This document shows positions 10,854-32,338 of a DNA stretch of 64,000 nt, piece by piece. Numbering within the stretch: the stretch's first letter is position 1; each line of letters opens with the position of its first letter. Origin of the DNA: a bacterium (GTDB taxonomy: Bacteria; Joyebacterota; Joyebacteria; Joyebacterales; Joyebacteraceae); assembly GCA_025774935.1 (NCBI GenBank), contig JALGZK010000010.1, positions 3,640 through 67,639 of the forward strand, read 5' to 3'. A program made the translations under genes and the position numbers. The notes beneath the pieces were generated by a model. That model was not told the origin of the DNA. It did not search any database and saw only the letters and a list, made by a program, of their open reading frames with translations.

Positions 10854-10956
10854 GATCCTCGGTTCCTCCAGCTACGGACCGGGCGTCGGGCGGGTCTTCC
10901 GCCCCGCGGCGCCCACACGACCCCTCCGGCTTCCCTGCGGTGCCCTGCCGGTGCTC

Positions 10957-12486: not shown

Positions 12487-13367
12487 GGCCGTCCCTCCCC
12501 TCCGGCGCCGGGAACGGCTGCGCCCGGCGCTTCGTCCTGCGTCAGGTGGAGGAAGAGCCGCGTGATGCCGCCGAGCGTCACGTAGGTCGCGAAGAAGAGG
12601 ACGACGACCCAGATCACCATGAGGAGCGGCACGAGCACCGGGGAGAACGTGTGCGCGATCGTGGCGCTCTGCCTCCACAGCCAGAGCGGCAGGATCTCGA
12701 GCGCGGCCGGCATGGCCACGAGCAGGAACGTGGCGACCGGGGTCCTCCCGAAGAGCACCAGGCTGCCTCCGACCGCCGCGCGCACGCTCCTTCCCGCGAG
12801 CACGATGTAGGGTGCCGTGTAGACGAGGACGGCCTGGACGAAGAGGACGACGAGGATCGTCGATCCCCTCACCACCCGGAACGTCCTCGGGCTCTCCTCC
12901 GCGAGATACCCGAAGAACGCGTAGGACGTCCTCGTCACGATCTGAGCGAGACCGACGGCGATCACCGCCGCGACCACGAGCGACCAGTACCTCGACGACG
13001 CCCGGCTCCACGCCTCCCCGAACCCCACCCGCCTCCGCTGATAGAAGGTGCCGAAGAGCACGATCCCCGTCGCCGCGGTCACCGCTCCCAGGAAGACGGC
13101 CAGGAACGGGTCGAGCTCGCCCAGCCCGGCCCTGAGCACGAGGAAGTTGTTCGGGTAGTGCAGCACGGACTCCCCGAACCGCCACCTCAGGAGCGGCACC
13201 ATGAACCACGAGACGACCGGGTACGCGAACCCGCCGATCGCGGCCAGGATCGCGGCCTGCCCCGCGGCGTAGATGGCGAACGGGAGGAGCGCCACGCGCC
13301 GCGAAAACGCCCTGAACGTCTCCACCCAGCCCCAGATGAGAGCATTGATCTGATCGATGAGGCCCAT
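12483..13367 (-). CDS. Uncharacterised polytopic membrane protein embedded in the exosortase operon
   Basis: 294 aa with about 7-8 hydrophobic helices; stop TGA overlaps the TPR-lipoprotein ATG (ATGA); no recognisable family motif. Confidence 0.65.
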   Translation of the reverse strand: MGLIDQINALIWGWVETFRAFSRRVALLPFAIYAAGQAAILAAIGGFAYPVVSWFMVPLLRWRFGESVLHYPNNFLVLRAGLGELDPFLAVFLGAVTAATGIVLFGTFYQRRRVGFGEAWSRASSRYWSLVVAAVIAVGLAQIVTRTSYAFFGYLAEESPRTFRVVRGSTILVVLFVQAVLVYTAPYIVLAGRSVRAAVGGSLVLFGRTPVATFLLVAMPAALEILPLWLWRQSATIAHTFSPVLVPLLMVIWVVVLFFATYVTLGGITRLFLHLTQDEAPGAAVPGAGGEGRP

Positions 13368-13463
13368 CAGAGTCCTTTCGAGAATCCCCTACGACGCGGC
13401 CCGCCCGGCGTCACGCCGCAGGCGGTCCCGCCGGTTCCCGGCGGTTCACGGCGCCCGGCCCCG

Positions 13464-14108
13464 TCAGCCCTCCCCGGCGAACACGAAGAGCTCCGGAAGG
13501 CGCACGAGCGCGGCCTCCGAGAAGTCCTTCAGCACCTCCATGGCGCCGTCGAAGTCACCGTCCCTCACGACGGTCGACACTCTAACGAACGCTCCGTAGG
13601 TCACGTTCGACACGATCCCCGACGCTGCCATCCGCGTCATGAACTTGTCGCGGTCGGCCGTCGCCAGATCCCCCGCCGTGTACCACCAGTAGACCGCGAG
13701 CCGGCGGACGCCCTGCTGCTCGACGAGCACCCAGTTGGCGTCGAAGCCGCCGTCTTTCCTCCAGAGGGGCTCGAGCCCCGAGTCGACGTCCGTCCATCCC
13801 TGGGACCGGTAGCATACGAGCGGCTCGTGCGCGCCGTACCGGTCGTTCTGATGGAAGATGATGACGAACCATATCCAGTCGCCCACGTCGTTCGTGTACC
13901 GCCGCGCCAGCGTGTCCGTCGCCTCGAGTTCCTCGTAGACGACGTCTTCGAACGACAGATCGACGCTGCGCCATCCTCCGAGCTGCGCCGGGAACGCTCC
14001 GAGCGAGCCCGCCTCGAGCTCCATCCTGTCGGGCGGGTTCAGGTGCACGTAGAAGGCGCCCGCCCCGAGGAGCGCGACCACGACGATCGTTCCGAATGAG
14101 GTCCTCAC
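13464..14108 (-). CDS. epsI: EpsI-family exosortase-associated protein
   Basis: 214 aa; N-terminal membrane anchor (IVVVALLGAGAFYV) then periplasmic domain; immediately downstream of exosortase with ATGA start/stop overlap at 14105-14108. Confidence 0.7.
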   Translation of the reverse strand: MRTSFGTIVVVALLGAGAFYVHLNPPDRMELEAGSLGAFPAQLGGWRSVDLSFEDVVYEELEATDTLARRYTNDVGDWIWFVIIFHQNDRYGAHEPLVCYRSQGWTDVDSGLEPLWRKDGGFDANWVLVEQQGVRRLAVYWWYTAGDLATADRDKFMTRMAASGIVSNVTYGAFVRVSTVVRDGDFDGAMEVLKDFSEAALVRLPELFVFAGEG

Positions 14109-15043
14109 GCGCCCCTCCCCTCAGGGGCGGTCTCTTCCCCCTCGCACGTCTCACATCTCAGGAGCTTCCGCACCACCACGAGTCCGACGAACGCGAACAT
14201 GAACAGCAGGAACCCTGAGAAGTCGTGGAAGAACCCGAGCGCGGCGTCGATGCCCCAGACGTGGGCGACGAGACAGAGCGCGGTGATCCTGAGCATGTTC
14301 CCGGCGATCGCGAGCGGCACGCTGACCGCGACGATGACGAGCCGCTTCCACGCGGCGCCCGCCGTCAGATACGCGAAGAGCGTTCCGAGGGCCACGAGCG
14401 CGATGAGCGACCTGAGCCCGCTGCAGGGGTCCGCGATCCGAAGCGACCCGGCCGGGACGTGGATCGTCATGCCCGAGCGGACGAGTGGCACGCCGAGCTT
14501 CGCGGCGAGTGCACTCCCTGAGCGCGCCGCGAAGACCTTGAGGTTGAAACTCAGCACGTTCATGAGGAACGGCGGCCACGGCAGCATGAACACGAGGAAC
14601 GCGAGCGGGAACCAGATCACCCTCGTCGCCCGACCCCCGAAGAAGAAGAGCGACAGGCCGAAGAGCATGAGGACGAACGAGTAGCCCTGCGTCATGAAGA
14701 TGCCCGCACGGATCGACACCACGTTCCCTACGAGCGCGAGAGCGATGATCGCGATGCCCCAAGCCGTCCCCGCCCTCACCGCATCCACGAACCTCTTCCG
14801 CTCGCGCCACAGGAGGAAGAGGACGATCGGCGGGATCAGGAACCCGTGCGAGTAGTTCGGCGAGGACATCCAGGTCCGCCAGAGCGTCGGGAAGACCGGG
14901 TAGTACACGATCGCAACGAGGACGGCCGCCACCGCGAAGCGCGCGAGCTGCCGCGCGGCGAGCGTCCCCCGAGGGGTCGCGCCCCCGCTACCGGTCGCGT
15001 TCCGGAGCTCCGCCCCGTCTCGTCTGTCGTTCCCGGTCGTCAA
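14105..15043 (-). CDS. xrtA: Exosortase (XrtA/EpsH family)
   Basis: ORF 14105..15388; polytopic membrane protein with exosortase-like motifs (ADPCSGLRSL, GNMLRITALCLV). Start assigned to TTG 15041-15043 with GGAGG about 5 nt upstream, overlapping the upstream TGA (TTGA); the Arg-rich 115 codons before it are rejected. Confidence 0.8.
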   Translation of the reverse strand: MTTGNDRRDGAELRNATGSGGATPRGTLAARQLARFAVAAVLVAIVYYPVFPTLWRTWMSSPNYSHGFLIPPIVLFLLWRERKRFVDAVRAGTAWGIAIIALALVGNVVSIRAGIFMTQGYSFVLMLFGLSLFFFGGRATRVIWFPLAFLVFMLPWPPFLMNVLSFNLKVFAARSGSALAAKLGVPLVRSGMTIHVPAGSLRIADPCSGLRSLIALVALGTLFAYLTAGAAWKRLVIVAVSVPLAIAGNMLRITALCLVAHVWGIDAALGFFHDFSGFLLFMFAFVGLVVVRKLLRCETCEGEETAPEGRGA

Positions 15044-16896
15044 CGCTGCTCCTCCGTGCTCAGGCGGGGCCCGCTCTCCTCCCCTCGGGACCTCCTGAGG
15101 GCTCCGAACGTCCCCAGGAGGATCCTGAGATCGAGGAGGAGCGAGCAGTTCTCGACGTAGAACCTGTCGAGCCTGACCTTCTCCTCGAGGTCGATCTCGT
15201 CCCTCCCATTGATCTGCGCCCAGCCGGTGAGGCCGGGCCGGACCAGGTCGACCCCGACCTGGCGCCTGAGTTCGATCAGCTCGTACTGGTTGTAGAGGGC
15301 GGGCCGCGGCCCGACCACGCTCATCTCGCCGCGGAGCACGTTCACGAGGTTCGGGTACTCGTCGGCGCTCGTCCTCCTCAGGAACCACCCGAACTTCGTC
15401 ACGCAGCCGTCCTTCATCTGGCTGTGGTTCATCAGGTCTGTCGCGAGATCCGGCGTCTCGCGGTGCATCGTTCGGAGCTTCAGGATCGTGAACTCCTGTG
15501 AGTAGACGCCGATCCGCCTCTGCGTGAAGTGCGCGTGCCCCGGCGAGTCGAGCCTGACGGCGATCGCCAGGAGCGCGTGGAGGGGCGCTCCCACGATCAG
15601 GATGCCGAATGCCGTGAGGACGTCTAGCAAGTACTTGACCCCGAGGTAGTAGCGGAACTTGAGGTGGCTTCCGCAGAGCGCGCGCTCTGATGCGAGGATC
15701 TCCTCGAGAAGCTCCTCGAGCTTGCCGGCGAGGGCGGTCCTCGAGTACGCGTCCTCGACGAAGACCCGACCGCTCCTCCCGAGCGTGTGGCGCATCTCGG
15801 CGTCACCAAGGAGCGTCTTCACGGCCTCGGCGAGGCCTCGCCCGTCACCCGGCTTCGTCACGATGCCGCTGCCGGCACGTTCGACGATCTCCCGCGCGTC
15901 GCCCTCCACCGCGGCGACTACTGGCTTCCCGCACGCCATGTAGTCGAAGAGCTTCACCGGGATCGTGCTCGCCGAGAACTCCCCGCTCCTCGTCGTCGCG
16001 AGGCAGAGAGCTGAGCGGTGCACGAGCTCGCTGAGCTCGTCCGGCTGCTTGCTCGGAAGGAACTCGACGTTCCTGAGACCCCGCCCGTCGACCTGGCGGA
16101 CGAGGTCCTGCTTCGCGACGCCGTCGCCCACCAGGACGAACCTCGCGTCGCTCTCGTCCCTCAGGATCTCGGCGGCTTCGAGGATCACGTCCATCCCGTG
16201 AACGAGCCCGTGCGTCCCCGAGTAGATGACCGTCCGGCCGTCTCCGCCGTTGCCAGCGGGTCCTCCGGCGGCCGGAGCGAAAAGCTCCGTGTCCGCCCCG
16301 TTCGTGATGAGCGAGATCCTGTGCCGCGGGATGCCACGCTCGAGCATCAGTCGCTCCATACCGGGCGTGACGGCCACGAGCCTCGCTGCCCGGCGGTAGA
16401 GGAACTGCTCGAGGCTCTCCGCGGCGCGGATGGCCCGCCGGCTCCTCAGCTCGCCGAGCTCGACGGCCGCGTGTGGCCAGTAGTCCCTGAGATCGAGCAC
16501 GAACGGGACGCCACGGACGAGTCCGAGGAACCACGCCGTCAGTCCGAGGAAGAGCGGCGGAGAACTCACGAGGACCAGATCGCACTTCCCCGCGGCGCAC
16601 CCGCCGACCGCGGCGGTGATCATGAACGAGAGCTGGTTCGCAACGCGGGTGAAGAACGTCTTCCTGGGCGTCGCGAAGAGGTAGCACCTCAGGATGCGGA
16701 CGCCGTCTACCTCCTCGCGGCAAGCGAGCTTCCTCCGGTAGCGGGGCTGCTTCACGCCGCTCGGGTGGTTGGGCATGCCCGTCACGACCGTCACGGCGTG
16801 GCCCCGCTTCGCGAGATTCGTCGCGAAGTGATAGGCCCGAAGCGGCGCCGCGCCGGTCTCCGGCGGGTAGTACTGTGTCAGGAAGAGGATCCTCAT
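15040..16896 (-). CDS. Bifunctional GT4 glycosyltransferase / PglC-like phosphoglycosyltransferase (Bac_transf) fusion
   Basis: 618 aa; N-terminal GT4 ([35 protein letters not shown]...), C-terminal ~190 aa sugar-transferase domain (KYLLDVLTAFGILIVGAPL...SVVGPRPALYNQYELI...RPGLTGWAQINGR). Confidence 0.85.
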   Translation of the reverse strand: MRILFLTQYYPPETGAAPLRAYHFATNLAKRGHAVTVVTGMPNHPSGVKQPRYRRKLACREEVDGVRILRCYLFATPRKTFFTRVANQLSFMITAAVGGCAAGKCDLVLVSSPPLFLGLTAWFLGLVRGVPFVLDLRDYWPHAAVELGELRSRRAIRAAESLEQFLYRRAARLVAVTPGMERLMLERGIPRHRISLITNGADTELFAPAAGGPAGNGGDGRTVIYSGTHGLVHGMDVILEAAEILRDESDARFVLVGDGVAKQDLVRQVDGRGLRNVEFLPSKQPDELSELVHRSALCLATTRSGEFSASTIPVKLFDYMACGKPVVAAVEGDAREIVERAGSGIVTKPGDGRGLAEAVKTLLGDAEMRHTLGRSGRVFVEDAYSRTALAGKLEELLEEILASERALCGSHLKFRYYLGVKYLLDVLTAFGILIVGAPLHALLAIAVRLDSPGHAHFTQRRIGVYSQEFTILKLRTMHRETPDLATDLMNHSQMKDGCVTKFGWFLRRTSADEYPNLVNVLRGEMSVVGPRPALYNQYELIELRRQVGVDLVRPGLTGWAQINGRDEIDLEEKVRLDRFYVENCSLLLDLRILLGTFGALRRSRGEESGPRLSTEEQR

Positions 16897-18155
16897 GGCT
16901 TCCTTCCGGCCTCTCCTGCCTGCCCAAGCCTCAGTTCCGATGACGTCCGATCCGCGCCCGTGCGGGATCCGCCCGCCGCGCGCAGGAGCGCCGCGAACGT
17001 GTCCTCGACCTTAGTCACGACTGCGGCGATGTCGTGACTCTCGCGCGCGAGCGTCCGGCCGCGCTCACCCATAGAGCACGCGCGCGCGGGGTCGCTCAGG
17101 ATCTCGAGGAGCGCCCTGCCCATCGCGGGACCGTCGCCCGCCGGGACCAGGAGGCCCGACGAGCCGCGCTCGACCACCTCGGGCACCCCGCCGACGTCCG
17201 TCGCCACGACCGGAAGGCCCGCGGCCATCGCCTCCATCAGGACGTTCGGCGTGCCCTCGGAGGTCGACGAGAGCGCGAAGGCGTCCATGAGCCCGAGCAC
17301 CCGGGGCACGTCCTCCCGGACGCCCGCGAAGATCACGGCGTCCGCGATCCCGAGCTCGTCGGCAACGCGGCCGAGTTCCTGTCTCCTCGCGCCGTCGCCG
17401 ACTATGAGGAAGCGCGCGTCCGGCAACGACCTCGCGACCACCGCCGCCGCCGCGAGGAAGTGCTCGTGTCCCTTTACGTCCGAGAGTTTGCCGACGATCC
17501 CGACCACGGGGTGCCCGTCCGTGCCCAGCTCCCGCGCGAGGTTCCCGTCCCGGAGGACGTGCCGGCTTCCGGCTCCGCCCTCCGTGTCGCCGGGTGCATC
17601 CACCGCCGCTCCCCTGACCGCGCTCCCGACCGAGTAGGGCGTCAGGTCTATGCCGACGCCCACGTTGACGATCTTCCGTTCCGGGACGCGGAACCGCTCG
17701 ACGAGCTCCCTGGCCGCCGCCGCGCTGTTCACGAGGACCGCGTCGACGACCCGACGGTTCGCGTACCCGTAGACCTTCTCCTTCGTTCCGCCCGTGAGCC
17801 AGTACGAGAGGTTCCTCTGGTTGTTCACGACGACCGGCACCCGAGCGGCGCGTCCGACGAACGGCCCGACGATGGTCGTGAGGCCGAGCATGCATGAGAG
17901 AATCTCCACCCGCTCGCGCCTCAGGAACGACGCCGCCCGCGGAAGACCGCGGACGGTCCCCGCCGAGAGAGCGCTCGCCCCGGTCCCGAACTCGTGGACC
18001 GGGACTCCCAAGGACTCGATCACCGGGAGCAGCTCGCCGCGCTTCGCCGTCGACATGACGACCGGGTCGAAGCGCTCCCGGTCGATTCTCGAGAGGAGCT
18101 CGACGAGGAAGCGCTGCGTGCCGGCCCGCTCGAACGACCCGGCCCAGAACGCCAC
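16893..18155 (-). CDS. GT4 family glycosyltransferase
   Basis: 420 aa, GTG start; GT4 C-terminal motifs ([36 protein letters not shown]); stop overlaps the downstream ATG (ATGA). Confidence 0.85.
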
Positions 18156-18224
18156 CTTGATGGGTCCGCCCCTCGCTTCTCTGACGGTCCTTCCCAGAAT
18201 CGACCTCCGCGTGCTCGGCGTCCG

Positions 18225-19499
18225 TCACGACGCCGCCTCCTGACGTTCGCCCGTCGGCCCCGCGACGTCACGGCCGCCGCCGCGCGTCGGCCGCGATCGG
18301 GACGATGCGGTCACCTCCCGGAGCGACGAGTGGTTCGGGCGCGAGAGCCGCGCGTACTGGATGTCCGCCGCGAGCCATCGGACGTCCGCGTCGTGCGGGA
18401 CGATCCCGAGCCGGGGCAGGCAGTGCACGGGGTACCGCCTTGAGACGGGCCCGGCGATCGAGGTCACGCCGGATCTGAACCCGGCGTCGGCGACGACCGC
18501 GGCCGTCGTCGCGTCGAAGTGACGGTTCGTCCTTCCGTTCGGGTAGGCGAAGTGCTCGACCTCGCACCCTAGGAGCTCCTCGAGGGCGCGCTTCGACTCC
18601 CCCACCTCGCCGACGAGCGCGTCGGTCGAGACGCTCGGGAGGTTGTAGTGCGTCACCGAGTGCGCGCCGATCGTCATCCCGCCCTCGTGCATCTCCCGGA
18701 TCTCGTCCGGGTTCATCATGATCCTCGAGTCGTACGTGTCCCGCGAGTTCCCGCATGCCTCCCGGACCTCGTTCACGATCTCGAGGGCCTCGCGTTCGCC
18801 CGATCGCTTCACGACCGCGGTAATGAACGCGATCGCCTTCTCCTTCGCGCGCGGGGTCGAGAGGTCTATCGAGCAGGCGCCGAAGGTCCCGCACTTGAGC
18901 CCTTGAGACTCGGTCCTGCGGATCGCGTGGCGAAGGGCGACGGTCCAGAGGATCGATTCGTCCGAGATCGCTCCCGTCGTCACGTAGAACGTCGCGGTCG
19001 CCCCGTGCTTCCTGAGAATCGGGAACGCACAGCGGTAGTTGTCCTCGTACCCGTCGTCGAACGTGATCGCGACGGTTCTCGGGTCGACCCGTCTGCCCGA
19101 AGCGATGGCGTCCGCAAGTTCGGGCACGCCGACGACGCGGTGCCGCTCCACGAGGTAGGCAACCTGCCTGTCGAAGACGTCCGTCGAGACGACCAGGCTC
19201 CGCTGGACGTAGTCTCCCGCCCAGCCGGGGTCGTCGTTGACCGAATGGTAGCGGAGGATCGTCGCACCGCCCCACGGTAGGAGGCTCATGGCCCTCACGA
19301 GAGGCGCGCAGTTCCGGAACGCGCGGCCGAACCCCCACAGGCCGTCGACGGAGATGGCGCCGTTCTCGTCGATGTACGGGACGTCGCCACGCCCCGGGCC
19401 GAGTCCGGCCCTGTCCGCGTCGCCCCACAGGCAGCGGCTCTCCTCGCCGGTGAGACCACGGCCCCTCCCGCGCTCCCTCATGTCGGGGTCCTTCCTCAT
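18225..19499 (-). CDS. Polysaccharide deacetylase (NodB-homology, PEP-CTERM-locus type)
   Basis: ORF 18225..19538; NodB motifs ILRYHSV and VAITFDDGYEDNY. Start placed at ATG 19497-19499, which overlaps the stop of the upstream tandem GT4 gene (ATGA) with GAGGGAG about 11 nt upstream; ATG 19289 is an alternative. Confidence 0.75.
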   Translation of the reverse strand: MRKDPDMRERGRGRGLTGEESRCLWGDADRAGLGPGRGDVPYIDENGAISVDGLWGFGRAFRNCAPLVRAMSLLPWGGATILRYHSVNDDPGWAGDYVQRSLVVSTDVFDRQVAYLVERHRVVGVPELADAIASGRRVDPRTVAITFDDGYEDNYRCAFPILRKHGATATFYVTTGAISDESILWTVALRHAIRRTESQGLKCGTFGACSIDLSTPRAKEKAIAFITAVVKRSGEREALEIVNEVREACGNSRDTYDSRIMMNPDEIREMHEGGMTIGAHSVTHYNLPSVSTDALVGEVGESKRALEELLGCEVEHFAYPNGRTNRHFDATTAAVVADAGFRSGVTSIAGPVSRRYPVHCLPRLGIVPHDADVRWLAADIQYARLSRPNHSSLREVTASSRSRPTRGGGRDVAGPTGERQEAAS

Positions 19500-21832
19500 A
19501 CCGTGTCGAACTCCCTCGCGCGCAGCGCGTCGACCCAACCCACGAGCCCGGACACCCGCTCGTCGAGCAGTTCCAGGTAGTAGTCGATCGTGTCCTCGAC
19601 CATGTGCTCCGTCGAGAACCTGGCGAGGACGCGTTCCCTCCCGGCCCTCCCCATGCGGCGCCGCAGCTCCTCGTCGCCGAGAAGCTCGAGCACGCGACGG
19701 GCGACCCCTTCGGCGTCGCCCGCGGGAAGCAGGAAGCCGGTCTCTCCCTCCTCGATCAGCTCGGGGTTTCCTCCGACGGCGGTCGCCACGACGGGCCTCC
19801 CGGCCGCCATCGCCTCGAGGACCACGTTCGAGCAGCCCTCCTTGATCGAGGTGAGCACGGACACGTCCGTGCTCGCGAGGACGGCGCCGATCCGGTCGGT
19901 CATGCCGGCGAACGTCACTGCCTCCCCGAGCCCGAGCTTCCGCGCGTGCTCGGTGAGCTCCGCCCTGAGCTGTCCGTCTCCGACAATGAGGAACCGCGCG
20001 TCGGGTCTCTCCCTCGCGATCAGAGCGGCGGCCTCGAGGAACGTCGCGTGGTCTTTCTTCGGGGTCAGGCTCGCGATGACGGTGATCGTGGGGCCGCTGC
20101 CCGCGCCGCTCCCGGGGAACGGCTCCGGAGGAGGCGAGCCGGTCCTCGACGGGACGTTTCCGTCGGCGGGCGCCGCGTCGACGTGGCCGCTGACCCGGCG
20201 GACCGAGATCCCGTTGTAGATCACGCGGATCTTCTCCGGGTCGACCCAGTGCATCTCCGCCACGTAGTCCTTGACCGCGCCGGCGTTCACGATCACGCGG
20301 TCCGTGATGCCAGAGAGGATCCTCTCGATGGCGTTTCCGCGAAACCTCGTGTGAACGTCGACGTTCCGCACCGACGTGAGGACGATCGGGACGCGAAGGA
20401 ACCGTCCGACGATGAGCCCCCTCCAGTTCGCCGACGACAGGAACGCGTGCAGGATCACCGGCCGCTCCGTCCTCACCAGACGCGCGAGCTTGCGGGACGC
20501 GCCGGAGAAGTTACCGAGGCGCTTCGCGAGCACGACCAGACGGACCCCGGCCTCCTCGATCTCGCGGCCGAGCGGCCCCAGCTGGCCGAGGCAGCAGACG
20601 ATCGGCTCGAACCGGTCCCTCGGGAGCCGGGTCGCGAGCTCCATGAGCTGGCGCTCGGCCCCACCGCGTTCGAGCTGTCCGATCACGTAGAGGACCTTGA
20701 TCTTCCCGGCCGGGGCGCGGTCCGCGTGCCCCGAGAGCGCAAGGTCGTAGAGCGCCTCCGTCTGCCCGACCATGTGCTTAGCGGTGAAGGCCTTCTCGTA
20801 GGACCGGCGGGCCGCGGCCGCAAGACGCGACCTCCGCCCGGCGTCCCTCGAAAGGAGAGCTATCTTGTCCGCGAGCGCTTCGTGGTCCCGCGGCGGAACC
20901 ACGTACCCGTTCACGCCGTCCCTGATCACCTCTGGGACGCCCCCGACGGCCGTCGAGACGCACGGGACCCCGGCCGCCATCGCCTCGAGCACCGTGATCG
21001 GCAGCCCCTCCCACGCCGAGGAGAGGACGAAGAGGTCCGATCCCCTGAGGAGCCTCGGCACGTCGTCGCGCGACCCGAGGAACGACACGCGATCGCCGAC
21101 GCCGAGCTCGGCCGCGTGGTCGCTCAGGTGCTGGAGGATCGGGCCGCCGCCGGCGACGGCGAAGTACACGGGCGGGACCAGGTCGGAGACTGCCGCGGCC
21201 GCCCGGATGAGGTTCTCGTGGTCCTTCTGTGGACTGAGGTTGCCGACGGTCAGGCAGAGGACGGCGTCGTCGGGCACGCCCAGCTCGCGTCGCACCTCTG
21301 CGCGGTCGCCGGCGACCGGGCGAAGTGTGTCGTCGATGCCGTTCCGGATGGTCACGAGGCGCGCCGGGGAGAACCTCCCCTCGGCGAGCCGGGACCGGGC
21401 GACGGCCTCCGACACGGCGATCTGCGCGTTCTCGCGCATGCTCGCGAGCCTGCTCAACGCGAGCCTGAATGGGAAGCGAGCCGCGGCGACGTTGTGCTCG
21501 GTGCGGAGCACGGCGGTGGCCCCGCCGAGGATGGCGGCGGGGATTCCGACGGTCATCGCAGTGAAGTTGTGGTCGTGGACGACATCGACGCCGCGTCGCC
21601 TGATTAGACCGGCGAGTCTGAGGACGGCGCGGAAGTCGAGACGCGACCTTCGTTCCAGGGCGTGGACGGGGACGCCGCGTTCGTCGAGGACGGCAGCCAG
21701 GGGACCCGCGTCCCCCACGCAGCACACCTCGGGCTCGTAGCGCGAGCGGTCGTGGGAGGTCGCGTACTCGACCACCACGCGCTCGGCCCCACCGAGCCCC
21801 AACGAACCAACGACGTGGAAGACCTTCTTCAT
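19496..21832 (-). CDS. Tandem GT4-GT4 glycosyltransferase (two complete GT4 modules in one polypeptide)
   Basis: Start at ATG 21832 (MKKVFHVVGSLGLGGAERVV); first module ends ...EALYDLALSGH, second begins KIKVLYVIGQLERGGAERQ; each has an EGxP...EAMAAG C-terminal signature. The 525 codons upstream in the same track ORF are Arg-rich and overlap the CoA-ligase-like gene, so they are rejected. Confidence 0.8.
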   Translation of the reverse strand: MKKVFHVVGSLGLGGAERVVVEYATSHDRSRYEPEVCCVGDAGPLAAVLDERGVPVHALERRSRLDFRAVLRLAGLIRRRGVDVVHDHNFTAMTVGIPAAILGGATAVLRTEHNVAAARFPFRLALSRLASMRENAQIAVSEAVARSRLAEGRFSPARLVTIRNGIDDTLRPVAGDRAEVRRELGVPDDAVLCLTVGNLSPQKDHENLIRAAAAVSDLVPPVYFAVAGGGPILQHLSDHAAELGVGDRVSFLGSRDDVPRLLRGSDLFVLSSAWEGLPITVLEAMAAGVPCVSTAVGGVPEVIRDGVNGYVVPPRDHEALADKIALLSRDAGRRSRLAAAARRSYEKAFTAKHMVGQTEALYDLALSGHADRAPAGKIKVLYVIGQLERGGAERQLMELATRLPRDRFEPIVCCLGQLGPLGREIEEAGVRLVVLAKRLGNFSGASRKLARLVRTERPVILHAFLSSANWRGLIVGRFLRVPIVLTSVRNVDVHTRFRGNAIERILSGITDRVIVNAGAVKDYVAEMHWVDPEKIRVIYNGISVRRVSGHVDAAPADGNVPSRTGSPPPEPFPGSGAGSGPTITVIASLTPKKDHATFLEAAALIARERPDARFLIVGDGQLRAELTEHARKLGLGEAVTFAGMTDRIGAVLASTDVSVLTSIKEGCSNVVLEAMAAGRPVVATAVGGNPELIEEGETGFLLPAGDAEGVARRVLELLGDEELRRRMGRAGRERVLARFSTEHMVEDTIDYYLELLDERVSGLVGWVDALRAREFDTV

Positions 21833-21930
21833 CTCGACAACCCCGTGCACCCTTCCCGGCACTCGAGACGCCGGGTCCTTCGTTTCGCCTCGCTGTCTGC
21901 GCCGAGTCTCGCCCTTCGCGTCGCCCGCCC

Positions 21931-23439
21931 CTACGACGAGGCGCGGGAGGCGCCGGCGCGTTCCTCCTCTGACTCCTCCGTGCTCTCCACCCCGACCTCT
22001 CCCCCGCCTCCCTCCTGGTAGAGGTTCGCCGTGGTCGTCTTCCCCCACACGAGCGGCACCGTGGAGATGACCCGGCGGTACTTGCCTCGGCCGACGAGGG
22101 GAATGTCGTCGACGTACTCGATGGCGACCCGGACGTCGGGACCGAGCCTCTCGGCGATGTTCCTCCTGAGATCGTCCTCGTCGTGCGCCGCGAGCGGCTG
22201 CTTCACCACGAGCCGTGTGGTGATTTCCGCGGGGTCGTGCTGGACGATCTGCGACCTGACGATGCCCGGAAGAAGCTTGAACGCGCGCGCGACCATGAGA
22301 GGCGGCACGAGCCGGCCGTCCGGCGTCACCAGGATGTCCTCCGCCCGCATCGCCACGTCCCTCATGAGCGGCAGCTTCCTGCCGCAAGGGCAGTCGGTCC
22401 CCGCCATGGAGGCGGTGTCGCCGACCTCGTAGCGGATGAGCGGCATCCCGAAGTTGTGCAGGCCGGTCGCGACGACTCGTCCGACCGTACCGTCCGGAAC
22501 GGGGTCTCCGTCGTCGTCGAGGAGCTCCGTGATGCCGAACTCCATGTAGAGGTGGTGCCCCGTGTGCCGGTCGCACTCGCTCGAGTACATCACGCGCTCG
22601 GACTGACTGTAGCCGTCGAAGACCCGGCACTGGAACCGCTCCTCTATCACCTCGCGCTCGACGTCGAGGAGGGGCTCGGACGTCGTGAAGACGCACCTGA
22701 GCGGCAGGTACTCGTCGCGCTCCTCCATGAACCGGGCCAGGACGTACGCCGCGGTCGGGTGCGCGTCGAGCGCCACGACGCCGACCTCCCGCATCGCCTC
22801 GATGTAGAGCGGAGCGGACTCGTCGGTCATGTGGAGCGGAGACAGCATGAGGTAGTTCCACGGCCGGTTGTGGCGCCAGTAGGGAGGTCCCTTCTGGTCG
22901 AGAGGAACGACCGGGCGTCCGAGACACGTGGCGATCGGCTCGCCGAACTCGACCCCGGCCCAGTTCCGCTCGCGCCAGAGGCACGCGTTGTTCATGTAGC
23001 CGATCTCCCGGTCCCAGTACATGTAGAGGGACGAACCTGTCGTTCCGGCGCTGTGCGTCTTCTTGAGTGACTTCCTCGGGGCGGCGTCGGACACCAGCTG
23101 CTCGATGCTCCGGTCGACGTCCGCGCGCGTGAGCACGGGCAGCTTCGGCAGGTCGGAGAGACGAGTGATGTCGCCGGGGACGAGCTTGAGGCCGCTCATG
23201 AGGTCGCGGTAGTAGGGCACCGTCTCGTACGCGTGCCTCACGACCAGGCGGAGTCGCTCCTCCTGGTACGCCTCGAGCTCCTCGAGCGACAGCCACTGTG
23301 ACCGGTCGAGCAGCTCGCTCGCGCGGTCGAAACCCTGCCCGAAGCGCTCGCGGCGCAGCTTCCAGCCGTAGGCCGACATGATCACATTCTGGATCGGCAC
23401 GGGGCACCGGCTGTAGAGTCTCTCTCCGACGTACTCCAT
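21931..23439 (-). CDS. Adenylate-forming enzyme, phenylacetate-CoA ligase (PaaK)/CapK-like
   Basis: ORF 21931..23484; start at ATG 23439 (MEYVGERLY) with GAGGT upstream; motifs SAGTTGSS (P-loop-like A3), YRDL, FKLLPGIVRSQIV; acidic low-complexity C-terminal tail (ESTEESEEE). Confidence 0.7.
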   Translation of the reverse strand: MEYVGERLYSRCPVPIQNVIMSAYGWKLRRERFGQGFDRASELLDRSQWLSLEELEAYQEERLRLVVRHAYETVPYYRDLMSGLKLVPGDITRLSDLPKLPVLTRADVDRSIEQLVSDAAPRKSLKKTHSAGTTGSSLYMYWDREIGYMNNACLWRERNWAGVEFGEPIATCLGRPVVPLDQKGPPYWRHNRPWNYLMLSPLHMTDESAPLYIEAMREVGVVALDAHPTAAYVLARFMEERDEYLPLRCVFTTSEPLLDVEREVIEERFQCRVFDGYSQSERVMYSSECDRHTGHHLYMEFGITELLDDDGDPVPDGTVGRVVATGLHNFGMPLIRYEVGDTASMAGTDCPCGRKLPLMRDVAMRAEDILVTPDGRLVPPLMVARAFKLLPGIVRSQIVQHDPAEITTRLVVKQPLAAHDEDDLRRNIAERLGPDVRVAIEYVDDIPLVGRGKYRRVISTVPLVWGKTTTANLYQEGGGGEVGVESTEESEEERAGASRASS

Positions 23440-23446
23440 CCTCACC

Positions 23447-24550
23447 TCACGAGCGGCGGACCGACCGCGCCGCGCTCGACTCAACGAGCTTCAGGTAGGC
23501 CGTCTCGATCGTCCTCATGTTCTTCGAGAGGTCGCCCCTCTCCTCCACGATCGCCCTGTTGATCTCCGAGGCGCGCGCCCTCAGCTCGCGATCCGAGAGG
23601 GCGGCGGTAATCGCCTCTGCGTACGCCTCCGGGCCTTTGTCTGCGACCAGGAAGCCGTTTCGTCCGTGCTCTATCCAGTGGCGGTTCGCTGCGTTGTCCC
23701 AGACGATCGGGAAGCAGCCGCGCGCCATCGCTTCAAGGAGCGAGGCCGACACGCCGTCGACCCTGACGGCAGCCACGTAGACGCTCGAACTCCCGAGGAG
23801 CTTCGGGAGCTCGTCGTACGCCACTCCCCCCGCGAACCACACGCGGTCGTCAATCCCGAGGTCGCGCGTGAGCCCCTCGAGCTCCGCCGCGCAGTTCCCG
23901 GTCCCGGCGACCGCGCCCGTGATGGCGGGGACGTCCTTCCTGGCGAGCGCGAGCGCCTGGAGCACGACGTCGAGCCTGTAGTGGCGCTGGAGCGACCTCG
24001 TCGTGATCACCGAGTACTCTTCGTCGGCCCCGTCGTCCCGGGGCGCGAACCGCGCGAGGTCGATCCCGCGGGGGCACTCGAAGATCTTCTCCCGGTCCGC
24101 TCCGAGTTCGACCAGGCGATCCGACATGTGGGGCGCCCACGAGTGGATGAGGTCGGCCCGCCGGAGCGTCATCCGTACGGGTATCCTCTTCTGGGCGCGG
24201 AACGGCAGACCGACGATGATCTGGCTCTGCGCGACCACGACCAGCGGGTGGAACCCGGACATCGCGGCCACGAAGCCGTAGCTCGGGACCCGGTACCCGA
24301 CCACGAGGTCGGGCTCTATCTCGGCGATGATCTTCCTCACGCGCGGGATCTTCCCCAGATTCGCTACCCTTCCCGCGAAGCCCGGCTCGCCCTCCACGAC
24401 CGACAGGTCCCGCACGTCGATCGACGGGTCGAGCTCGGCCGGGGGACTCATGGACAGCACGTGCACGTCGTGGCCGAGCACCTTCGAGAAGTGCTCGACC
24501 CAGCTTCGCGTGTTCACGCTGCTGCCGTCTGCGAGAAAGCAGACCCGCAC
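23447..24550 (-). CDS. GT4 family glycosyltransferase
   Basis: ORF 23447..24607; start at GTG 24550 (VRVCFLADGSSVNT) with AGGAGG about 6 nt upstream; C-terminal SLLEAMARGCFPIV...GRNGFLV GT4 motif. Confidence 0.8.
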   Translation of the reverse strand: MRVCFLADGSSVNTRSWVEHFSKVLGHDVHVLSMSPPAELDPSIDVRDLSVVEGEPGFAGRVANLGKIPRVRKIIAEIEPDLVVGYRVPSYGFVAAMSGFHPLVVVAQSQIIVGLPFRAQKRIPVRMTLRRADLIHSWAPHMSDRLVELGADREKIFECPRGIDLARFAPRDDGADEEYSVITTRSLQRHYRLDVVLQALALARKDVPAITGAVAGTGNCAAELEGLTRDLGIDDRVWFAGGVAYDELPKLLGSSSVYVAAVRVDGVSASLLEAMARGCFPIVWDNAANRHWIEHGRNGFLVADKGPEAYAEAITAALSDRELRARASEINRAIVEERGDLSKNMRTIETAYLKLVESSAARSVRRS

Positions 24551-24575
24551 GCCTTGCCTCCTGTGAAACCGTCTC

Positions 24576-26600
24576 CTAGCCGCCGGACACCCAGCAGGCG
24601 TCCTCACCCGGCTGCCCGCTCTTCGTGAACAGGACCGTCTGTCCCGCCACGTTCGCCCCGATGAAGTCCCCCGTGTCGATGAACGTCACGTTCGGCATCG
24701 ACGAGACGCCCGACGAGGTCGCGTAGAGGACGTGCAGGAACATGTGCTCGTTTGCCGCGGTCGACGGTGACACCTCCACGCGCCACGACCCGCTCTCCGA
24801 CCCTCCGCCTCCGGCGGGCGGGTAGTTGACACCGTTCACCTCGAACTGCCGGCCGCTTCCGCCGACCGGCGTGATCTGGTGCTGCGTCGGGAGGAGCGTC
24901 TTCACGAACAGCCTCGAGTCTCCCTGCGTGACCGAGAACGTGTCGCCGGACACCTGGGGCTGGTTGATCGAGTGGAGGAGCCACTTCTTGGTGAACGACG
25001 GGGACGTGGCAGTGACCCTGTCCAGCACGACGAAGAAGTCCGGCTTGAGCCACACGAACTCCCTGGTGAAGTTCGAGAGCTTGTGCGACGAGTAGGCCTT
25101 CGTGGCGTCGCCCTTGACGTAGGTGAACGTCTCGGTGTCCCTGTACGGCGTGACGATGCTCCCGCGGTCGAACTCCGGGCCCGACATGTCGCCGCAGACG
25201 ACGGCGTCCGGATAGCTCCAGACCGGGATCTGACCTCCGTCGTTCGCGTACGGATAGAACGTCGACTCGCCGGGGTCGTAGACCGTGATCGTGTTGTGGG
25301 CGATGGTGCGGCAAAAGTAGTTCTGATGATGGGAGCTGATCGACGAGTCGTAGTCGCCCGAGTCGATCGCCAGGAGGTCGTTCCCCCTCGCAATCAGGAA
25401 GTGACCCTGATGGGAGTGGGTGTGGTACGACGGGACGGCCTCGCAGCGGAAGACGGCGTAGATGTCCGTGCTGTTCACGGAGAGGTCCCAGCCGGACCTC
25501 ATGTACACCATGCCCACGTCGTTGAAGAGGGCGGCGCTGTTGTCGCCGTAGACGGCGGACGGGTGGACGGGCGTGACCGACGGGTCCCGCCACACGATCT
25601 GCTTCCAGCGGTCGAACGAGTTGATGTACCCGGATCCCTGCTCGAGGACCTCGTCCGCCACCCACTGGGCCACCCCGTCGTTGTAGACGGCGGCCAGGTT
25701 GTAGAGCGCCATTCGGACGGCCCCCGACCCGCCGCTGTGCCAGTGGGAGTCGCCCTGCTTCGAACCGAGCGACGTCCCGCTCCCCTTCGCGGCGCCCGTG
25801 TCGTAGACGAGGTAGCGGGCCATGTTCTGGTAGTTGGTCGACCACGAGAACGGGTCGTCGGTGGTTCCGACGTCGTAGGCCGTCATGCCCATCCTGTTAC
25901 CCGTGCAGAGGATCGACATGTTGTAGTCGCCCTCGAAGTAGCCTCCGTCGCTCGCGATCTCGTCGAGACAGCAGAGGATGGTCGAGGAGCCGAACTGGTG
26001 GGCCGAGTACGTGTCGAGGCACGCGGTCGCGACCTGGTTGTTGATGCCCTCTCCGTACAGCGCGATGCCCGGGTACGACAGGAGCGCGATCCTCCCGAGC
26101 TTGGAGTGGTAGTTGTTCAGGCTGCTCCACTGCGTCCCGATGCCGCTGCCGCTCTGATACCAGTCGGCACCGTCTGCGAGCGCGCTGCCGTAGGTGCTGC
26201 GCTCGGACGCGGTGAGCCCGTCGTAGCACCAGTCGAAGAACACGCTCCCCCCGAAGATCCAGTCGGTCGAGTGGGTCTGGTTGTGGCTGATCACGTACGA
26301 CGCGACCGCCTTGGCCCGGTTGAGGTAGCTGGTGTCCTGGCTGACGAGGTAGACGAAGCTGTACGACGAGAGCGCCCAGCTCACGTTCACCGGCAGCGGG
26401 TCGTTGATGTGGCTGTCGCACCAGGTCTTGATCTTGTTGTAGTCCGCGGAGTAGGAACCCAGGGCTCTCGAGCGGATGCCGGAGACCTGGCTCGCCGTGA
26501 AGAAGAGCCGCGGGTGTCCCTGGATGACCTGGTACCCCTCCGCCGGGACCACCATGGCCACGACGACGAGAAAGAGCACAGCTAGGGTAGTGAGTCTCAT
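24576..26600 (-). CDS. Secreted heparinase II/III-like polysaccharide lyase family protein
   Basis: ORF 24576..26657; start at ATG 26600 (MRLTTLAVLFLVVVAMVVPAEG signal peptide) with GAGGAG upstream; large Trp/Tyr/His-rich carbohydrate-active fold; start overlaps the upstream stop (ATGA). Confidence 0.65.
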   Translation of the reverse strand: MRLTTLAVLFLVVVAMVVPAEGYQVIQGHPRLFFTASQVSGIRSRALGSYSADYNKIKTWCDSHINDPLPVNVSWALSSYSFVYLVSQDTSYLNRAKAVASYVISHNQTHSTDWIFGGSVFFDWCYDGLTASERSTYGSALADGADWYQSGSGIGTQWSSLNNYHSKLGRIALLSYPGIALYGEGINNQVATACLDTYSAHQFGSSTILCCLDEIASDGGYFEGDYNMSILCTGNRMGMTAYDVGTTDDPFSWSTNYQNMARYLVYDTGAAKGSGTSLGSKQGDSHWHSGGSGAVRMALYNLAAVYNDGVAQWVADEVLEQGSGYINSFDRWKQIVWRDPSVTPVHPSAVYGDNSAALFNDVGMVYMRSGWDLSVNSTDIYAVFRCEAVPSYHTHSHQGHFLIARGNDLLAIDSGDYDSSISSHHQNYFCRTIAHNTITVYDPGESTFYPYANDGGQIPVWSYPDAVVCGDMSGPEFDRGSIVTPYRDTETFTYVKGDATKAYSSHKLSNFTREFVWLKPDFFVVLDRVTATSPSFTKKWLLHSINQPQVSGDTFSVTQGDSRLFVKTLLPTQHQITPVGGSGRQFEVNGVNYPPAGGGGSESGSWRVEVSPSTAANEHMFLHVLYATSSGVSSMPNVTFIDTGDFIGANVAGQTVLFTKSGQPGEDACWVSGG

Positions 26601-28141
26601 GATGTCATCTCCTCTGCTGTCCGGGGAGCTTTGTCGGTTGCTGCGAAACGGACGCATCTATCTACAAGACCGGCGAGGAAGAAATAGGTCCCCGCGATCG
26701 ACATGTTCAGGAATCTCTCTCCGAAGACGTTCGCCGCAAGGAGCGCCGCGGTGGCGCTCAGGAAGCCGAGGGCGATGCCTCTGTCCAGCCTGCGGGATGC
26801 TGCGCGCAGGAGCTCTATGCCGCTCTTCACGCACGACACGAGGAGCCACGCGAGCGCGACTATTCCGATGAGACCCGCCTCTCCGAAGATCGCGACGTAG
26901 AGGTTGTGGGACGAGAACGACCGGCCGATCTCCTTGTAGGTCAGGAACGGGATGGTCGAGTACCCCATCCCCCAGATTGGCGAGCTGCGCATCGTCTCGC
27001 GGAAGACGATCCCCCAGATCTTGAGCCTCACCCCGGCGGACGGGTCGAGTTTGTCCGTCGGGTCTCCCATGAGCTCGGCCTCGACCGTGTCGACCCGAGT
27101 CTCCGCCACTCGGTCCTTCACGAAGTCGGGAGCCCAGATCGGGCTCAGCGCCAGCACGATCAGGAAGAGCACGAAGACGCGCTTGCTCACGCTCAGCGTC
27201 AGGAGCCCGAGCCCGCACGCGAATCCCACCAACGCCCCTCGGGAGTTCGGGAGGAAGACGCCGATCGCGGCGAATGCGGACGACACCCAGATCGTGAGTC
27301 GCTTCATCATCGGGAAGATCCTCGATGACACGAGGACGATCCCGATGATCATCGTGGCGCACATCGCGAAGTACGCGCCGAGGTCGTTCACGTCGCCGAG
27401 CGCACCTGAGACGCGCTGGTGCGAGGCGAGCCCGCCGTACTGGTCGAGCGCGATGAGGGCGCCGACCGTCAGACCGACGCCGAAGGTCACGAGGAGGTTC
27501 TTCATCTGCTCGCGGTTCTCGACCGTGTTCACGACGACGAAGTAGACCGCGATCCCGAGGACGCTGTTCCAGAGGTTCTTGACGAGCACCATCGCCGGGT
27601 AGCTCCCCGTCGACGGTGGGAAGACAACGACCTTGAGGAGCGACATGAAGAGCACGCCGATGAACAGGGCGATCGGCACGGTGAGCCTCGCCCTCACGAA
27701 GATCTGCTGTCTCGCGAAGATCCTGGGGACGATCCAGCTCACCAGGAGGATGATGAAGATGAGGTTGGGCGCGTTGATCCCGGGAATGCCCGTCGCGGGG
27801 AGGTACTCGCCGAGCGGGAGAGCGAGGAGCCAGGCGTGCAGCGCGACGTGGGGCCGGAAGAACGCGACTGTGAAGATGGTCACGCCCACGAGGATCTTGA
27901 TGATCCGGTGCGGAGCCTGCCCGTACGCGTAGTGGAGCTGGAAGATCGCGTAGGCCATGCCGAGAGCGACGACCGCGGCCACGACGTACAGCAGCCAGGC
28001 GTAGCTGTACTGCGGCACCTGGCTCGGCAGCGGGGGCGGCGCCGGGGTCTGTCTCGGCGTTCCGGGATCAGCCACCGCTCTCCTCCTCCGCGTGCTCCGT
28101 CGCGTCCGTCGTCCCGGCGTCCATGACCTCCGCCGCGTCAC
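26597..28141 (-). CDS. O-antigen ligase / Wzy-like polymerase family membrane protein
   Basis: About 12 TM helices; Wzy_C-like motifs RGALVGFACGLGLL and SSHNLYVAIFGEAGLIGIVAL. Start uncertain: ATG 28141 overlaps the upstream gene by 74 nt and gives an Arg-rich N-terminus; GTG near 28018 (VPQYSYAWLLYVV) is the alternative. Confidence 0.75.
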   Translation of the reverse strand: MTRRRSWTPGRRTRRSTRRRRAVADPGTPRQTPAPPPLPSQVPQYSYAWLLYVVAAVVALGMAYAIFQLHYAYGQAPHRIIKILVGVTIFTVAFFRPHVALHAWLLALPLGEYLPATGIPGINAPNLIFIILLVSWIVPRIFARQQIFVRARLTVPIALFIGVLFMSLLKVVVFPPSTGSYPAMVLVKNLWNSVLGIAVYFVVVNTVENREQMKNLLVTFGVGLTVGALIALDQYGGLASHQRVSGALGDVNDLGAYFAMCATMIIGIVLVSSRIFPMMKRLTIWVSSAFAAIGVFLPNSRGALVGFACGLGLLTLSVSKRVFVLFLIVLALSPIWAPDFVKDRVAETRVDTVEAELMGDPTDKLDPSAGVRLKIWGIVFRETMRSSPIWGMGYSTIPFLTYKEIGRSFSSHNLYVAIFGEAGLIGIVALAWLLVSCVKSGIELLRAASRRLDRGIALGFLSATAALLAANVFGERFLNMSIAGTYFFLAGLVDRCVRFAATDKAPRTAEEMTS

Positions 28142-29957: not shown

Positions 29958-30011
29958 GCGCTCCTCTCCGGACGCGGTCCCGCGGCTCTGCGCCGCGCGG
30001 CCCGGCGCCCG

Positions 30012-30371
30012 CTAGCTCCGCGAGATGACGAACACGCCGAGACAGATGATGACGAGACCTATGGTCCTCACGGCCGTGATGTGCTCCCCCAGAAAGAGCC
30101 AGGACGCCACGAAGACGAGCACGTACGCGAGGCTCACCATCGGGTACGCGAGGCTCAGGTCCACGTTTGACACCACCGCGATCCACAGGACGGCGGAGAG
30201 CCCGTAGCAGACGAAGCCGATCGCCACCTGCGGGACCTTGAGGATCGGGACGAGCTGACCCCACACGCTTCCTGCCGACACCTCGCCGTAGATCATCATC
30301 CCCTTCTTCATGATGACCTGGCCGGTGGCTCCCAGCAGGACCGCCGCGAGGATGAGCGGGATTCCCTTCAT
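30012..30371 (-). CDS. Small 4-TM DMT/SMR-like membrane protein (ArnE/ArnF- or GtrA-like flippase subunit)
   Basis: 119 aa, four hydrophobic helices, MKGIPLILAAVLLGATGQVIMKKG N-terminus typical of EamA/SMR-like Und-P-sugar flippase subunits; sits between the GT2 and GT39 genes. Confidence 0.65.
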   Translation of the reverse strand: MKGIPLILAAVLLGATGQVIMKKGMMIYGEVSAGSVWGQLVPILKVPQVAIGFVCYGLSAVLWIAVVSNVDLSLAYPMVSLAYVLVFVASWLFLGEHITAVRTIGLVIICLGVFVISRS

Positions 30372-30426
30372 CGAGCGCCTCCTCCACGAACCCGGACCGG
30401 CCGCGCGCCGCGGCCCCGGGCACGGA

Positions 30427-31179
30427 CTACGATGGTCTCCTGATGGCCTGACGTCCTGCGGCGACCATCACGAGGTATCGCCTGATGGTGTCCAGGATGT
30501 TCATCTTGCTCGCGCCGCCCTTCCTGTCGTACCTGAGGACGAGCGGCACCTCTGTCACGCGCGACGGGAGCTGCGCGAGCTTGAGAAGCACCTCGGCGGA
30601 CGAGACGAACCCGGACTCCGTGATGAGGTCGTCTCCGAAGACCCGGAATCCCGCCGCGAGGGTCGAACCCCTGTAGGCCCTGTATCCGCACGAGTAGTCC
30701 CGCACCCCGGGCACTCGCAGGAACGTCCTCAGGAGCATGCTCGCACCCTTGCTCAGGAAGCTCCTGAGAGGCGACAGCCCGACCTCCCTTCCGCCCTTCG
30801 CGTACCTGGAGGCGATGACGATGTCGTAGCCGTCATCGATCCGCTCGAGCATGTCCGGTATGATCGACGGATCGTGCGTGTCGTCGGTGTCCATGCCTAC
30901 GAGCACGCCGTCCTCGCCCGCGATGTCCTTGCCGCGAGCGAACCCGGTCCTGAGCGCCTCCCCGAGGCCGCGGTTGGTCTCGTGCGTCTCGACCGTCAGC
31001 TCGAGCCCGAGCTCCCGGGCGCGCTCCCTGGCCTTCTCCGCGGTCCCGTCTGAGCTCCCGTCGTCGACGAGGAGCACGCCCGCGGGACGGTCGACCCGGC
31101 CGAAGACGGCCGCGATCTTCTCCAGCAGGGGCCCGATCGCTCCGGACTCGTTGTATGCCGGCAGCATCACTACGAGCAT
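30427..31179 (-). CDS. GT2 polyprenyl-phosphate glycosyltransferase (ArnC/GtrB/DPM1-like)
   Basis: 250 aa; MLVVMLPAYNE start, VLLVDDGSSDGT (DxD-type), VGMDTDDTHDP; GAGGA Shine-Dalgarno upstream. Confidence 0.85.
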   Translation of the reverse strand: MLVVMLPAYNESGAIGPLLEKIAAVFGRVDRPAGVLLVDDGSSDGTAEKARERARELGLELTVETHETNRGLGEALRTGFARGKDIAGEDGVLVGMDTDDTHDPSIIPDMLERIDDGYDIVIASRYAKGGREVGLSPLRSFLSKGASMLLRTFLRVPGVRDYSCGYRAYRGSTLAAGFRVFGDDLITESGFVSSAEVLLKLAQLPSRVTEVPLVLRYDRKGGASKMNILDTIRRYLVMVAAGRQAIRRPS

Positions 31180-32333: not shown

Positions 32334-32338
32334 GCGTG

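Follow-up and report, generated by a model that had tools for sequence, protein, structure and literature searches.

The closest described counterpart of a tandem glycosyltransferase (GT) of family GT4 is WbdA, whose polypeptide contains GT4 mannosyltransferase modules, two in O9a/O3 and three in O8/O5, one for each type of linkage (PMC11231755, PMC7820976). Here we describe a protein of comparable design, which consists of two complete GT4 modules joined in a single reading frame and is encoded, within an exopolysaccharide (EPS) locus, on the minus strand of a 64,000-nucleotide stretch of contig JALGZK010000010.1, from an uncultured bacterium of the Eisenbacteria type (the whole stretch is referred to below as the window). 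With WbdA of E. coli O9a/O8 and Klebsiella O3/O5, and with the WbdA-like protein of the P. syringae CPA locus, it shares the presence of multiple complete retaining GT4 modules in one polypeptide. The likeness would extend to the soluble, membrane-peripheral character and the polyprenol-linked glycan acceptor described for WbdA (PMC11231755, PMC7820976). However, WbdA is processive, uses GDP-mannose and works in a Wzm/Wzt pathway together with the terminator WbdD, whereas the tandem GT is encoded among genes for Wzy_C, Wzz, Wza and an exosortase, and the nearest solved relatives of its modules are enzymes using UDP-N-acetylhexosamines (UDP-HexNAc). Of the features that characterize the WbdA type, at least two GT4 modules are present, but an ABC-transporter locus (Wzm/Wzt) and WbdD are not.

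The best-scoring curated family for both modules, in each case with a full-length alignment, was TIGR03088 ('stp2'), which comprises GT4 enzymes of PEP-CTERM/XrtA systems and has the same genomic association with an exosortase and EpsI. Its members have a single module of about 374 amino acids, in contrast to the two modules found here. Neither module qualified as a member: the N-terminal module (N module) scored 222.6 bits and the C-terminal one (C module) 204 bits against the curated cut-off of 409.05. The whole protein did reach 421.9 bits, but only as the sum of two half-strength stretches, and this apparent membership is an artefact. By sequence, the nearest solved proteins were BshA, MshA and PglA, which use UDP-N-acetylglucosamine (UDP-GlcNAc) or UDP-N-acetylgalactosamine (UDP-GalNAc). 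When the model of the protein was compared with the PDB using Foldseek, each module was placed on BshA, HepE or MshA with target-normalised template modelling (TM) scores of 0.82-0.88. BshA, MshA, PglA and HepE have the fold and the EX7E and Lys motifs in common with the modules of the tandem GT, but they are single-module enzymes with small-molecule or other lipid acceptors, and their sequence identity to the modules is 20-25%. No solved tandem GT4 pair was found in the PDB; the sole multi-domain match (8qoy) had a low TM score.

Two GT4 modules in one polypeptide

Translation of the gene yielded 778 codons with a stop only at the end, which confirmed the claim of a first-pass annotation that both modules are read in one frame. 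The sequence elements on which that claim had been based were all found in the translation: the N-terminal motifs of the two modules at residues 12-20 ('GLGGAERVV') and 388-396 ('ERGGAERQL'), the EG..EAMAAG-type signatures at residues 274-288 ('WEGLPITVLEAMAAG') and 664-678 ('KEGCSNVVLEAMAAG'), and the linker ADRAPAGKIK around residues 367-381 ('...SGHADRAPAGKIKVLYV...'). A domain scan with Pfam gave two full sets of Glyco_transf_4 (PF13439) and Glycos_transf_1 (PF00534). Tested alone, the N half matched PF00534 with 156.8 bits (E 4.9e-46) and PF13439 with 70.8 bits, and the C half with 135.5 bits (E 1.7e-39) and 84.4 bits, respectively, the Pfam cut-offs for the GT4 models being 26-29 bits. 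The halves were 33% identical to each other over 378 columns (BLASTP, E 5e-49), a similarity far beyond chance. A defence-system GT4 family (PF20706) was also considered and rejected; it scored 38.1 and 20.7 bits with the two modules, compared with 156.8 and 135.5 for PF00534, and the gene has an EPS neighbourhood.

About 70 full-length orthologues (750-830 amino acids) were identified, with 49-86% identity and approximately 99% coverage; the named ones come from metagenome-assembled genomes of Candidatus Eisenbacteria. In an alignment of 43 orthologues G14/G15/E17, K203, E275, E283 and G297/G298 were invariant in the N module, and G390/G391/E393, K592/K593, E665, E673 and G687/G688 in the C module. 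The Gly-rich loop, the Lys, the EX7E motif and the GG pair are the canonical nucleotide-sugar-binding and catalytic motifs of GT4 enzymes such as PimA, WaaG and AceA. Each module thus has the attributes of CAZy GT4 and the Glycos_transf_1 clan, namely a Pfam match, the GT-B fold, and EX7E together with the diphosphate-binding Lys. Judged by these residues, both active sites look functional. The first-pass annotation had proposed a bifunctional enzyme adding two consecutive sugars, and the invariance of the Gly-rich loop, the Lys and EX7E in both modules supports predicted bifunctionality.

An AlphaFold2 model built on the 43-orthologue alignment had a mean predicted local distance difference test score (pLDDT) of 87.1 and a predicted TM-score of 0.84. 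Confidence was low only at residues 550-568 (pLDDT <50), at residues 490-495 and in the last three residues. The first of these segments falls in a loop of the C module (approximately residues 541-580) that is poorly conserved, modelled with low confidence and located between the two Rossmann domains, outside the motifs. Hydropathy analysis predicted no transmembrane segment in the tandem GT.

The combination of two GT4 modules is not rare. Among the best 150 representatives at 50% identity, 127 were at least 700 amino acids long, most of them with two to four matched stretches, and the whole Eisenbacteria clade was represented by one full-length protein (P0018). Distant relatives had the module orders N-C, N-N and C-N, and fusions with GT2 or deacetylase domains were also encountered. 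The architecture is thus common among bacteria and has already been characterized in WbdA, so that the finding, sound as it is, is an ordinary one. The tandem GT is an uncharacterized protein, but it opens no new enzyme class or mechanism. The modest added value lies in the co-variation of the C module with a deacetylase described in the next section, and the practical value is mainly in annotation: the 778-amino-acid open reading frame (ORF) should be kept as a single gene with two putatively active GT4 modules and not be split.

The C module, its coupled deacetylase and the proposed function

The start codon of the deacetylase gene (ATG, 19499..19497) overlaps the TGA of the transferase gene as ATGA, and the same 4-nucleotide overlap was found in loci L001 and L004. 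No hydrophobic segment was detected in the deacetylase by hydropathy analysis, and the enzyme is therefore predicted to be cytoplasmic. Fusion proteins of a GT4 and a deacetylase occur elsewhere (P0077, P0108).

An exhaustive search of representatives, together with a search using the N half alone, revealed stand-alone N-module proteins (P0136, P0265 and P0266; 384-391 amino acids) that were 58-59% identical to the N module and had intact motifs. The GTDB scan, which used two peptide patterns, both from the C module, was blind to such N-only loci. In the four N-only loci (L086-L089) the gene order is heparinase II/III-like, GT4, N module, GT4, GT4::phosphoglycosyltransferase, exosortase, EpsI, with neither the C module nor the deacetylase and no remnants of either. 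One of the four is a 139-kb contig beginning with the same GltX-Ddl-Wza-Wzz neighbourhood as in the window. Of the fused loci, 26 had sufficient sequence on the downstream side, and in all 26 the transferase gene was followed by the deacetylase gene; among the N-only loci this was so in 0 of 4.

When the N modules were placed in a neighbour-joining tree, the stand-alone forms branched from within the clade of fused proteins; in the more distant tandem relatives, too, an N-like module precedes a C-like one. These sequence relationships suggest that the N-only loci have secondarily lost the C module together with the deacetylase. An origin of the N-only loci as recombination chimeras of the C module and the GT4 encoded at 16893..18155 was not supported; the gene downstream of the N module in L086 was 57% identical to that GT4 over its full length. 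Since four loci retain the N module without the C module and the deacetylase, the second sugar appears to be dispensable, and this suggests a residue that is modified later, for example on a branch or at a terminus, and not one that is strictly required within the chain. From the N-only variants, and from the fact that C module and deacetylase strictly occur together, a testable hypothesis follows as to which of the modules forms the core linkage and which one attaches the modifiable amino sugar.

The protein is probably one bifunctional, non-processive transferase with two competent retaining modules, of which the N module would perform a core step and the C module would add an accessory sugar that is then de-N-acetylated. 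As a soluble, membrane-peripheral enzyme with two independent retaining modules of GT-B fold, both predicted to be catalytically competent, it would help to assemble, on the cytoplasmic side of the membrane, a polyprenyl-diphosphate-linked repeat unit, the final product being an exosortase-associated EPS of the Wzy/Wzz/Wza type. With a nucleotide sugar as the donor, each module would add one sugar: the N module in a core step of the repeat-unit pathway, the C module adding a further, dispensable residue, most likely a sugar of the N-acetyl-hexosamine type. The translationally coupled, cytoplasmic NodB-type deacetylase would then remove the acetyl group from the C-module sugar, and the fusion would ensure 1:1 stoichiometry and the proximity of the successive steps.

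There are precedents for coupling of this kind. In the BshA and MshA pathways the transfer of GlcNAc is followed by the action of a dedicated de-N-acetylase (BshB and MshB, respectively), which parallels the succession proposed here, although BshB and MshB belong to a family other than PF01522. In the synthesis of Nod factors the product made by a cytoplasmic glycosyltransferase is the direct substrate of a deacetylase of the NodB type (PF01522), likewise cytoplasmic, and export follows afterwards. The deacetylase of the window resembles NodB in its predicted cytoplasmic location, and it is translationally coupled to a GT. NodC, however, is a processive chitin-oligomer synthase of family GT2, unlike the GT4 tandem, and in contrast to the Nod system no NodA-like acyltransferase is present; a CapK-like ligase is only a variable neighbour.

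Several observations count against the proposal. Donor and lipid-linked acceptor, the order of action, the identities of the sugars and the de-N-acetylation of the C-module product are all inferred. Each module reaches about half of the TIGR03088 cut-off, and no curated family assigns a specificity. The neighbour-joining tree that places the N-only proteins in the fused clade carries no support values. The four N-only loci correspond to three 90%-identity clusters and perhaps to one or two loss events, so that few independent events underlie the observed co-variation of the C module with the deacetylase. Finally, among the genes of the EPS locus (approximately 9300..35850) none was recognized as a Wzx/MOP flippase, which leaves a gap in the export route.

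A more speculative extension, which we advance tentatively and regard as rather doubtful, is that a mobile 'decoration cassette' on a core transferase is made up of the C module and the ATGA-coupled deacetylase, joined in most lineages by the CapK-like ligase, and serves the synthesis of a cationic or zwitterionic EPS. If so, the cassette would install a free-amine or a re-acylated or amidated amino sugar on the lipid-linked precursor before export, and the covalent fusion would hand the intermediate from the core step directly to the decoration steps. The uncultured phylum Eisenbacteria would in that case possess an uncharacterized way of making exosortase-type EPS of cationic or zwitterionic character. 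The CapK-like ligase, which may amidate or acylate a sugar, is encoded in most loci, and in orthologous loci it carries the domain CapK_C (PF27533). It is missing, however, from four fused loci (L017, L024, L028 and L033) and from all N-only loci. A strict cassette of ligase, C module and deacetylase was therefore partly rejected, as only the deacetylase tracks the C module. The UDP-GlcNAc 2-epimerase/GT2/PMT_2 trio is not linked to the C module either, being absent from the fused loci L001, L007 and L024.

Alternative explanations and the reading frame

The most serious alternative to a non-processive bifunctional transferase is a WbdA-like polymerase, whose modules would take turns in the processive synthesis of a long polymer on a lipid primer, as happens in the case of the polymannose O antigen of E. 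coli O9a and Klebsiella O3. Such a polymerase would have the same gross architecture, with GT4 modules one per linkage type (PMC11231755, PMC7820976), and would fit the missing Wzx. It is nevertheless unlikely: between 9.3 and 35.8 kb neither a Wzm/Wzt ABC exporter nor a WbdD-like terminator was found (the sole ABC genes in the window are of the MlaE/MlaF type, at approximately 50 kb), whereas Wzy_C, a Wzz/GNVR tyrosine-kinase-type co-polymerase and Wza are present. Four further GT modules and an initiating phosphoglycosyltransferase, typical of repeat-unit assembly, are also encoded. Moreover, related loci work with the N module alone, a situation in which a co-polymerase relying on alternation could not function.

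It was also considered that only one of the modules is catalytic and that the other is a degenerate GT4 scaffold serving as an acceptor-binding or regulatory unit. Pseudo-glycosyltransferase modules occur in some multidomain enzymes, and the C module does have the disordered, unconserved insert at about residues 541-580. This insert, however, is in the loop between the Rossmann domains and not in the motifs, both modules match the Pfam GT4 models strongly and over their full length, and the Gly-rich loop, Lys, EX7E and GG remained invariant in both modules across 43 orthologues that differ as widely as 49-86% identity indicates. We judge this explanation to be slightly less probable even than a polymerase.

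The junction between the modules is nearly constant in length, with a single-residue gap in one of the 43 orthologues; its consensus is 'TEALYDLALSGRADLAxxGRIKVLYVIGQL', and A373 is at least 90% conserved. When each half was used as a tblastn query against 85 fetched loci, the halves were contiguous and in frame in all 29 fused loci of the Eisenbacteria type. A stop or frameshift between the modules, the event that according to the first-pass annotation would speak against a fused enzyme, could thus be excluded by comparison and without reads, the same in-frame junction being present in the 43 orthologues and in 29 independently assembled loci. That a sequencing or assembly error near 20.7 kb merged two adjacent GT4 genes, which is conceivable a priori as such neighbours are common in loci of this kind, has a negligible probability, given that the junction recurs in orthologous proteins from different samples and assemblers, that the linker is well ordered in the AlphaFold2 model (pLDDT ~87-94 across the junction) and that an identical protein is found on two contigs.

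The identical protein is a public 778-amino-acid entry (P0001; 100% identity, recorded on two contigs). A 55-amino-acid 'hypothetical protein' attributed to Bifidobacterium longum (KWZ89481.1) shares its 90%-identity cluster and is probably a contaminant fragment or a clustering oddity.

The mechanically delimited ORF in the frame of the tandem GT reaches upstream to 23407 (1303 amino acids). The extension overlaps the ligase gene, which is in another frame and has a strong third-position GC bias; the longer ORF was ruled out by this overlap with a real gene and by the orthologues starting at the ATG. The start at 21832 chosen in the earlier annotation is right, since the N-termini of orthologues begin with 'MxKVLHVV'. 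An alternative start six codons upstream of the ATG would by sequence be a GTG at 21850 (21833..21850, minus strand). The database entry P0122 (784 amino acids) uses the upstream alternative start; the N-termini of the orthologues favour the ATG.

The exopolysaccharide locus

All genes of the EPS locus (approximately 9.3-35.8 kb) are on the minus strand. Their order is Wza (Poly_export), a Wzz/GNVR/P-loop co-polymerase, UDP-GlcNAc 2-epimerase, a GT2 resembling polyprenyl-phosphate-sugar synthases, a small ArnE/F-like EamA protein, a PMT_2 GT-C, Wzy_C, a heparinase II/III-like protein, a GT4, the CapK/PaaK-like ligase, the tandem GT4-GT4, the PF01522 deacetylase, a second GT4, a GT4::Bac_transf phosphoglycosyltransferase, an exosortase, EpsI, a protein with six transmembrane segments, a TPR protein and a PEP-CTERM-box-like sigma-54 response regulator (Table 1). 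Orthologous loci from unrelated samples have the conserved order Wza, Wzz-kinase, Wzy_C, GT4, (CapK-like ligase), GT4-GT4, deacetylase and GT4, continuing with GT4::phosphoglycosyltransferase, exosortase and EpsI.

Table 1. Positions of the tandem GT, its parts and the neighbouring genes in the window
Feature	Positions	Strand	Remarks
Tandem GT4-GT4 gene	19496..21832	-	778 aa; ATG 21832..21830, TGA 19498..19496; single stop at end
N module, residues 1-366	20735..21832	-	complete GT-B GT4 (Glyco_transf_4 + Glycos_transf_1); Pfam; AlphaFold2 pLDDT mostly >90
Gly-rich loop of N module (G14 G15 A16 E17)	21782..21793	-	invariant columns
EX7E of N module (E275...E283)	20984..21010	-	sequence; both Glu invariant, 43 orthologues
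Inter-module linker SGHADRAPAGK, residues 367-377 (11 residues)	20702..20734	-	no stop
C module, residues 378-760	19553..20701	-	second complete GT-B GT4; Pfam and conservation profile
Gly-rich loop of C module (G390 G391 A392 E393 R394)	20651..20665	-	invariant or nearly invariant columns
EX7E of C module (E665...E673)	19814..19840	-	sequence; both Glu invariant, 43 orthologues
C-terminal tail, residues 761-778	19499..19552	-	invariant L763, W766, R773; helix 763-771 in model
Polysaccharide deacetylase (PF01522/NodB type)	18225..19499	-	NCBIfam deacetylase matches; directly downstream of tandem GT
CapK/PaaK-like adenylate-forming ligase	21931..23484	-	directly upstream of tandem GT; NCBIfam PaaK-family matches below cut-off
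Single-module GT4 paralogue	16893..18155	-	37.5% identical to C module; syntenic in all loci examined
Initiating enzyme, WcaI-like GT4 + Bac_transf polyprenyl-phosphate glycosylphosphotransferase	15040..16896	-	NCBIfam and Pfam
Exosortase (~14105..15040) and EpsI (13464..14108)	13464..15040	-	exosortase PF09721, E 1.9e-67; EpsI TIGR02914

The single-module GT4 downstream of the deacetylase would be the enzyme of the next step or steps of the same pathway as the tandem GT. The gene following it is a second fusion in the operon, in which a WcaI-like GT4 (residues 1-400) is joined to a Bac_transf domain (residues 420-602), with one hydrophobic segment (residues 417-450) ahead of the catalytic domain. 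This fusion was kept in all syntenic loci (603-640 amino acids); thus the initiating enzyme and the next transferase are also welded together.

The exosortase and EpsI genes, within about 5 kb of the tandem GT, mark the locus as exosortase-associated. The exosortase scored 200 bits with TIGR02602 (cut-off 105.6) and 196.5 bits with the XrtA model (cut-off 208), and the gene resembling PEP-CTERM-box response regulators 414 bits (cut-off 503). The gene that immediately follows EpsI, in the window (12483..13367, minus strand) as in all syntenic loci, encodes a conserved protein of about 290 amino acids with approximately six hydrophobic segments, for which no Pfam or NCBIfam match was found. Our literature search yielded nothing specific on EPS or exosortases of Eisenbacteria.

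Upstream of the ligase gene, the heparinase II/III-like protein (24576..26657, minus strand) has one N-terminal hydrophobic segment, and its orthologues carry an N-terminal domain resembling dermatan-sulfate epimerase (DSE-like). These features hint that the polymer is a substrate of this protein, which would be a lyase or a uronate C5-epimerase. Further upstream, a set of three genes on the minus strand (28068..31179) comprises the GT2 (30427..31179), which resembles polyprenyl-phosphate hexose/HexNAc synthases, the ArnE/ArnF-like EamA protein (30012..30467) and the PMT_2 GT-C (28068..29957). The three together resemble the ArnC/ArnEF/ArnT or Gtr sets and are predicted to serve periplasmic glycosyl modification. 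Some orthologous loci (L001, L007, L024 and L087) lacked the GT2, the PMT_2 protein and the neighbouring 2-epimerase, but the small EamA protein was always kept, and this invariant ArnEF-like protein is a candidate for flipping the lipid-linked unit.

The region between 36080 and 53039 (minus strand) contains housekeeping genes, coding for Ddl, GltX, a rhomboid protease, IspDF, a RadA-like protein, MlaD/F/E and DnaB. The N-only locus L087 shows the same succession of neighbours GltX, Ddl and Wza, indicating that the EPS locus occupies a conserved chromosomal position.

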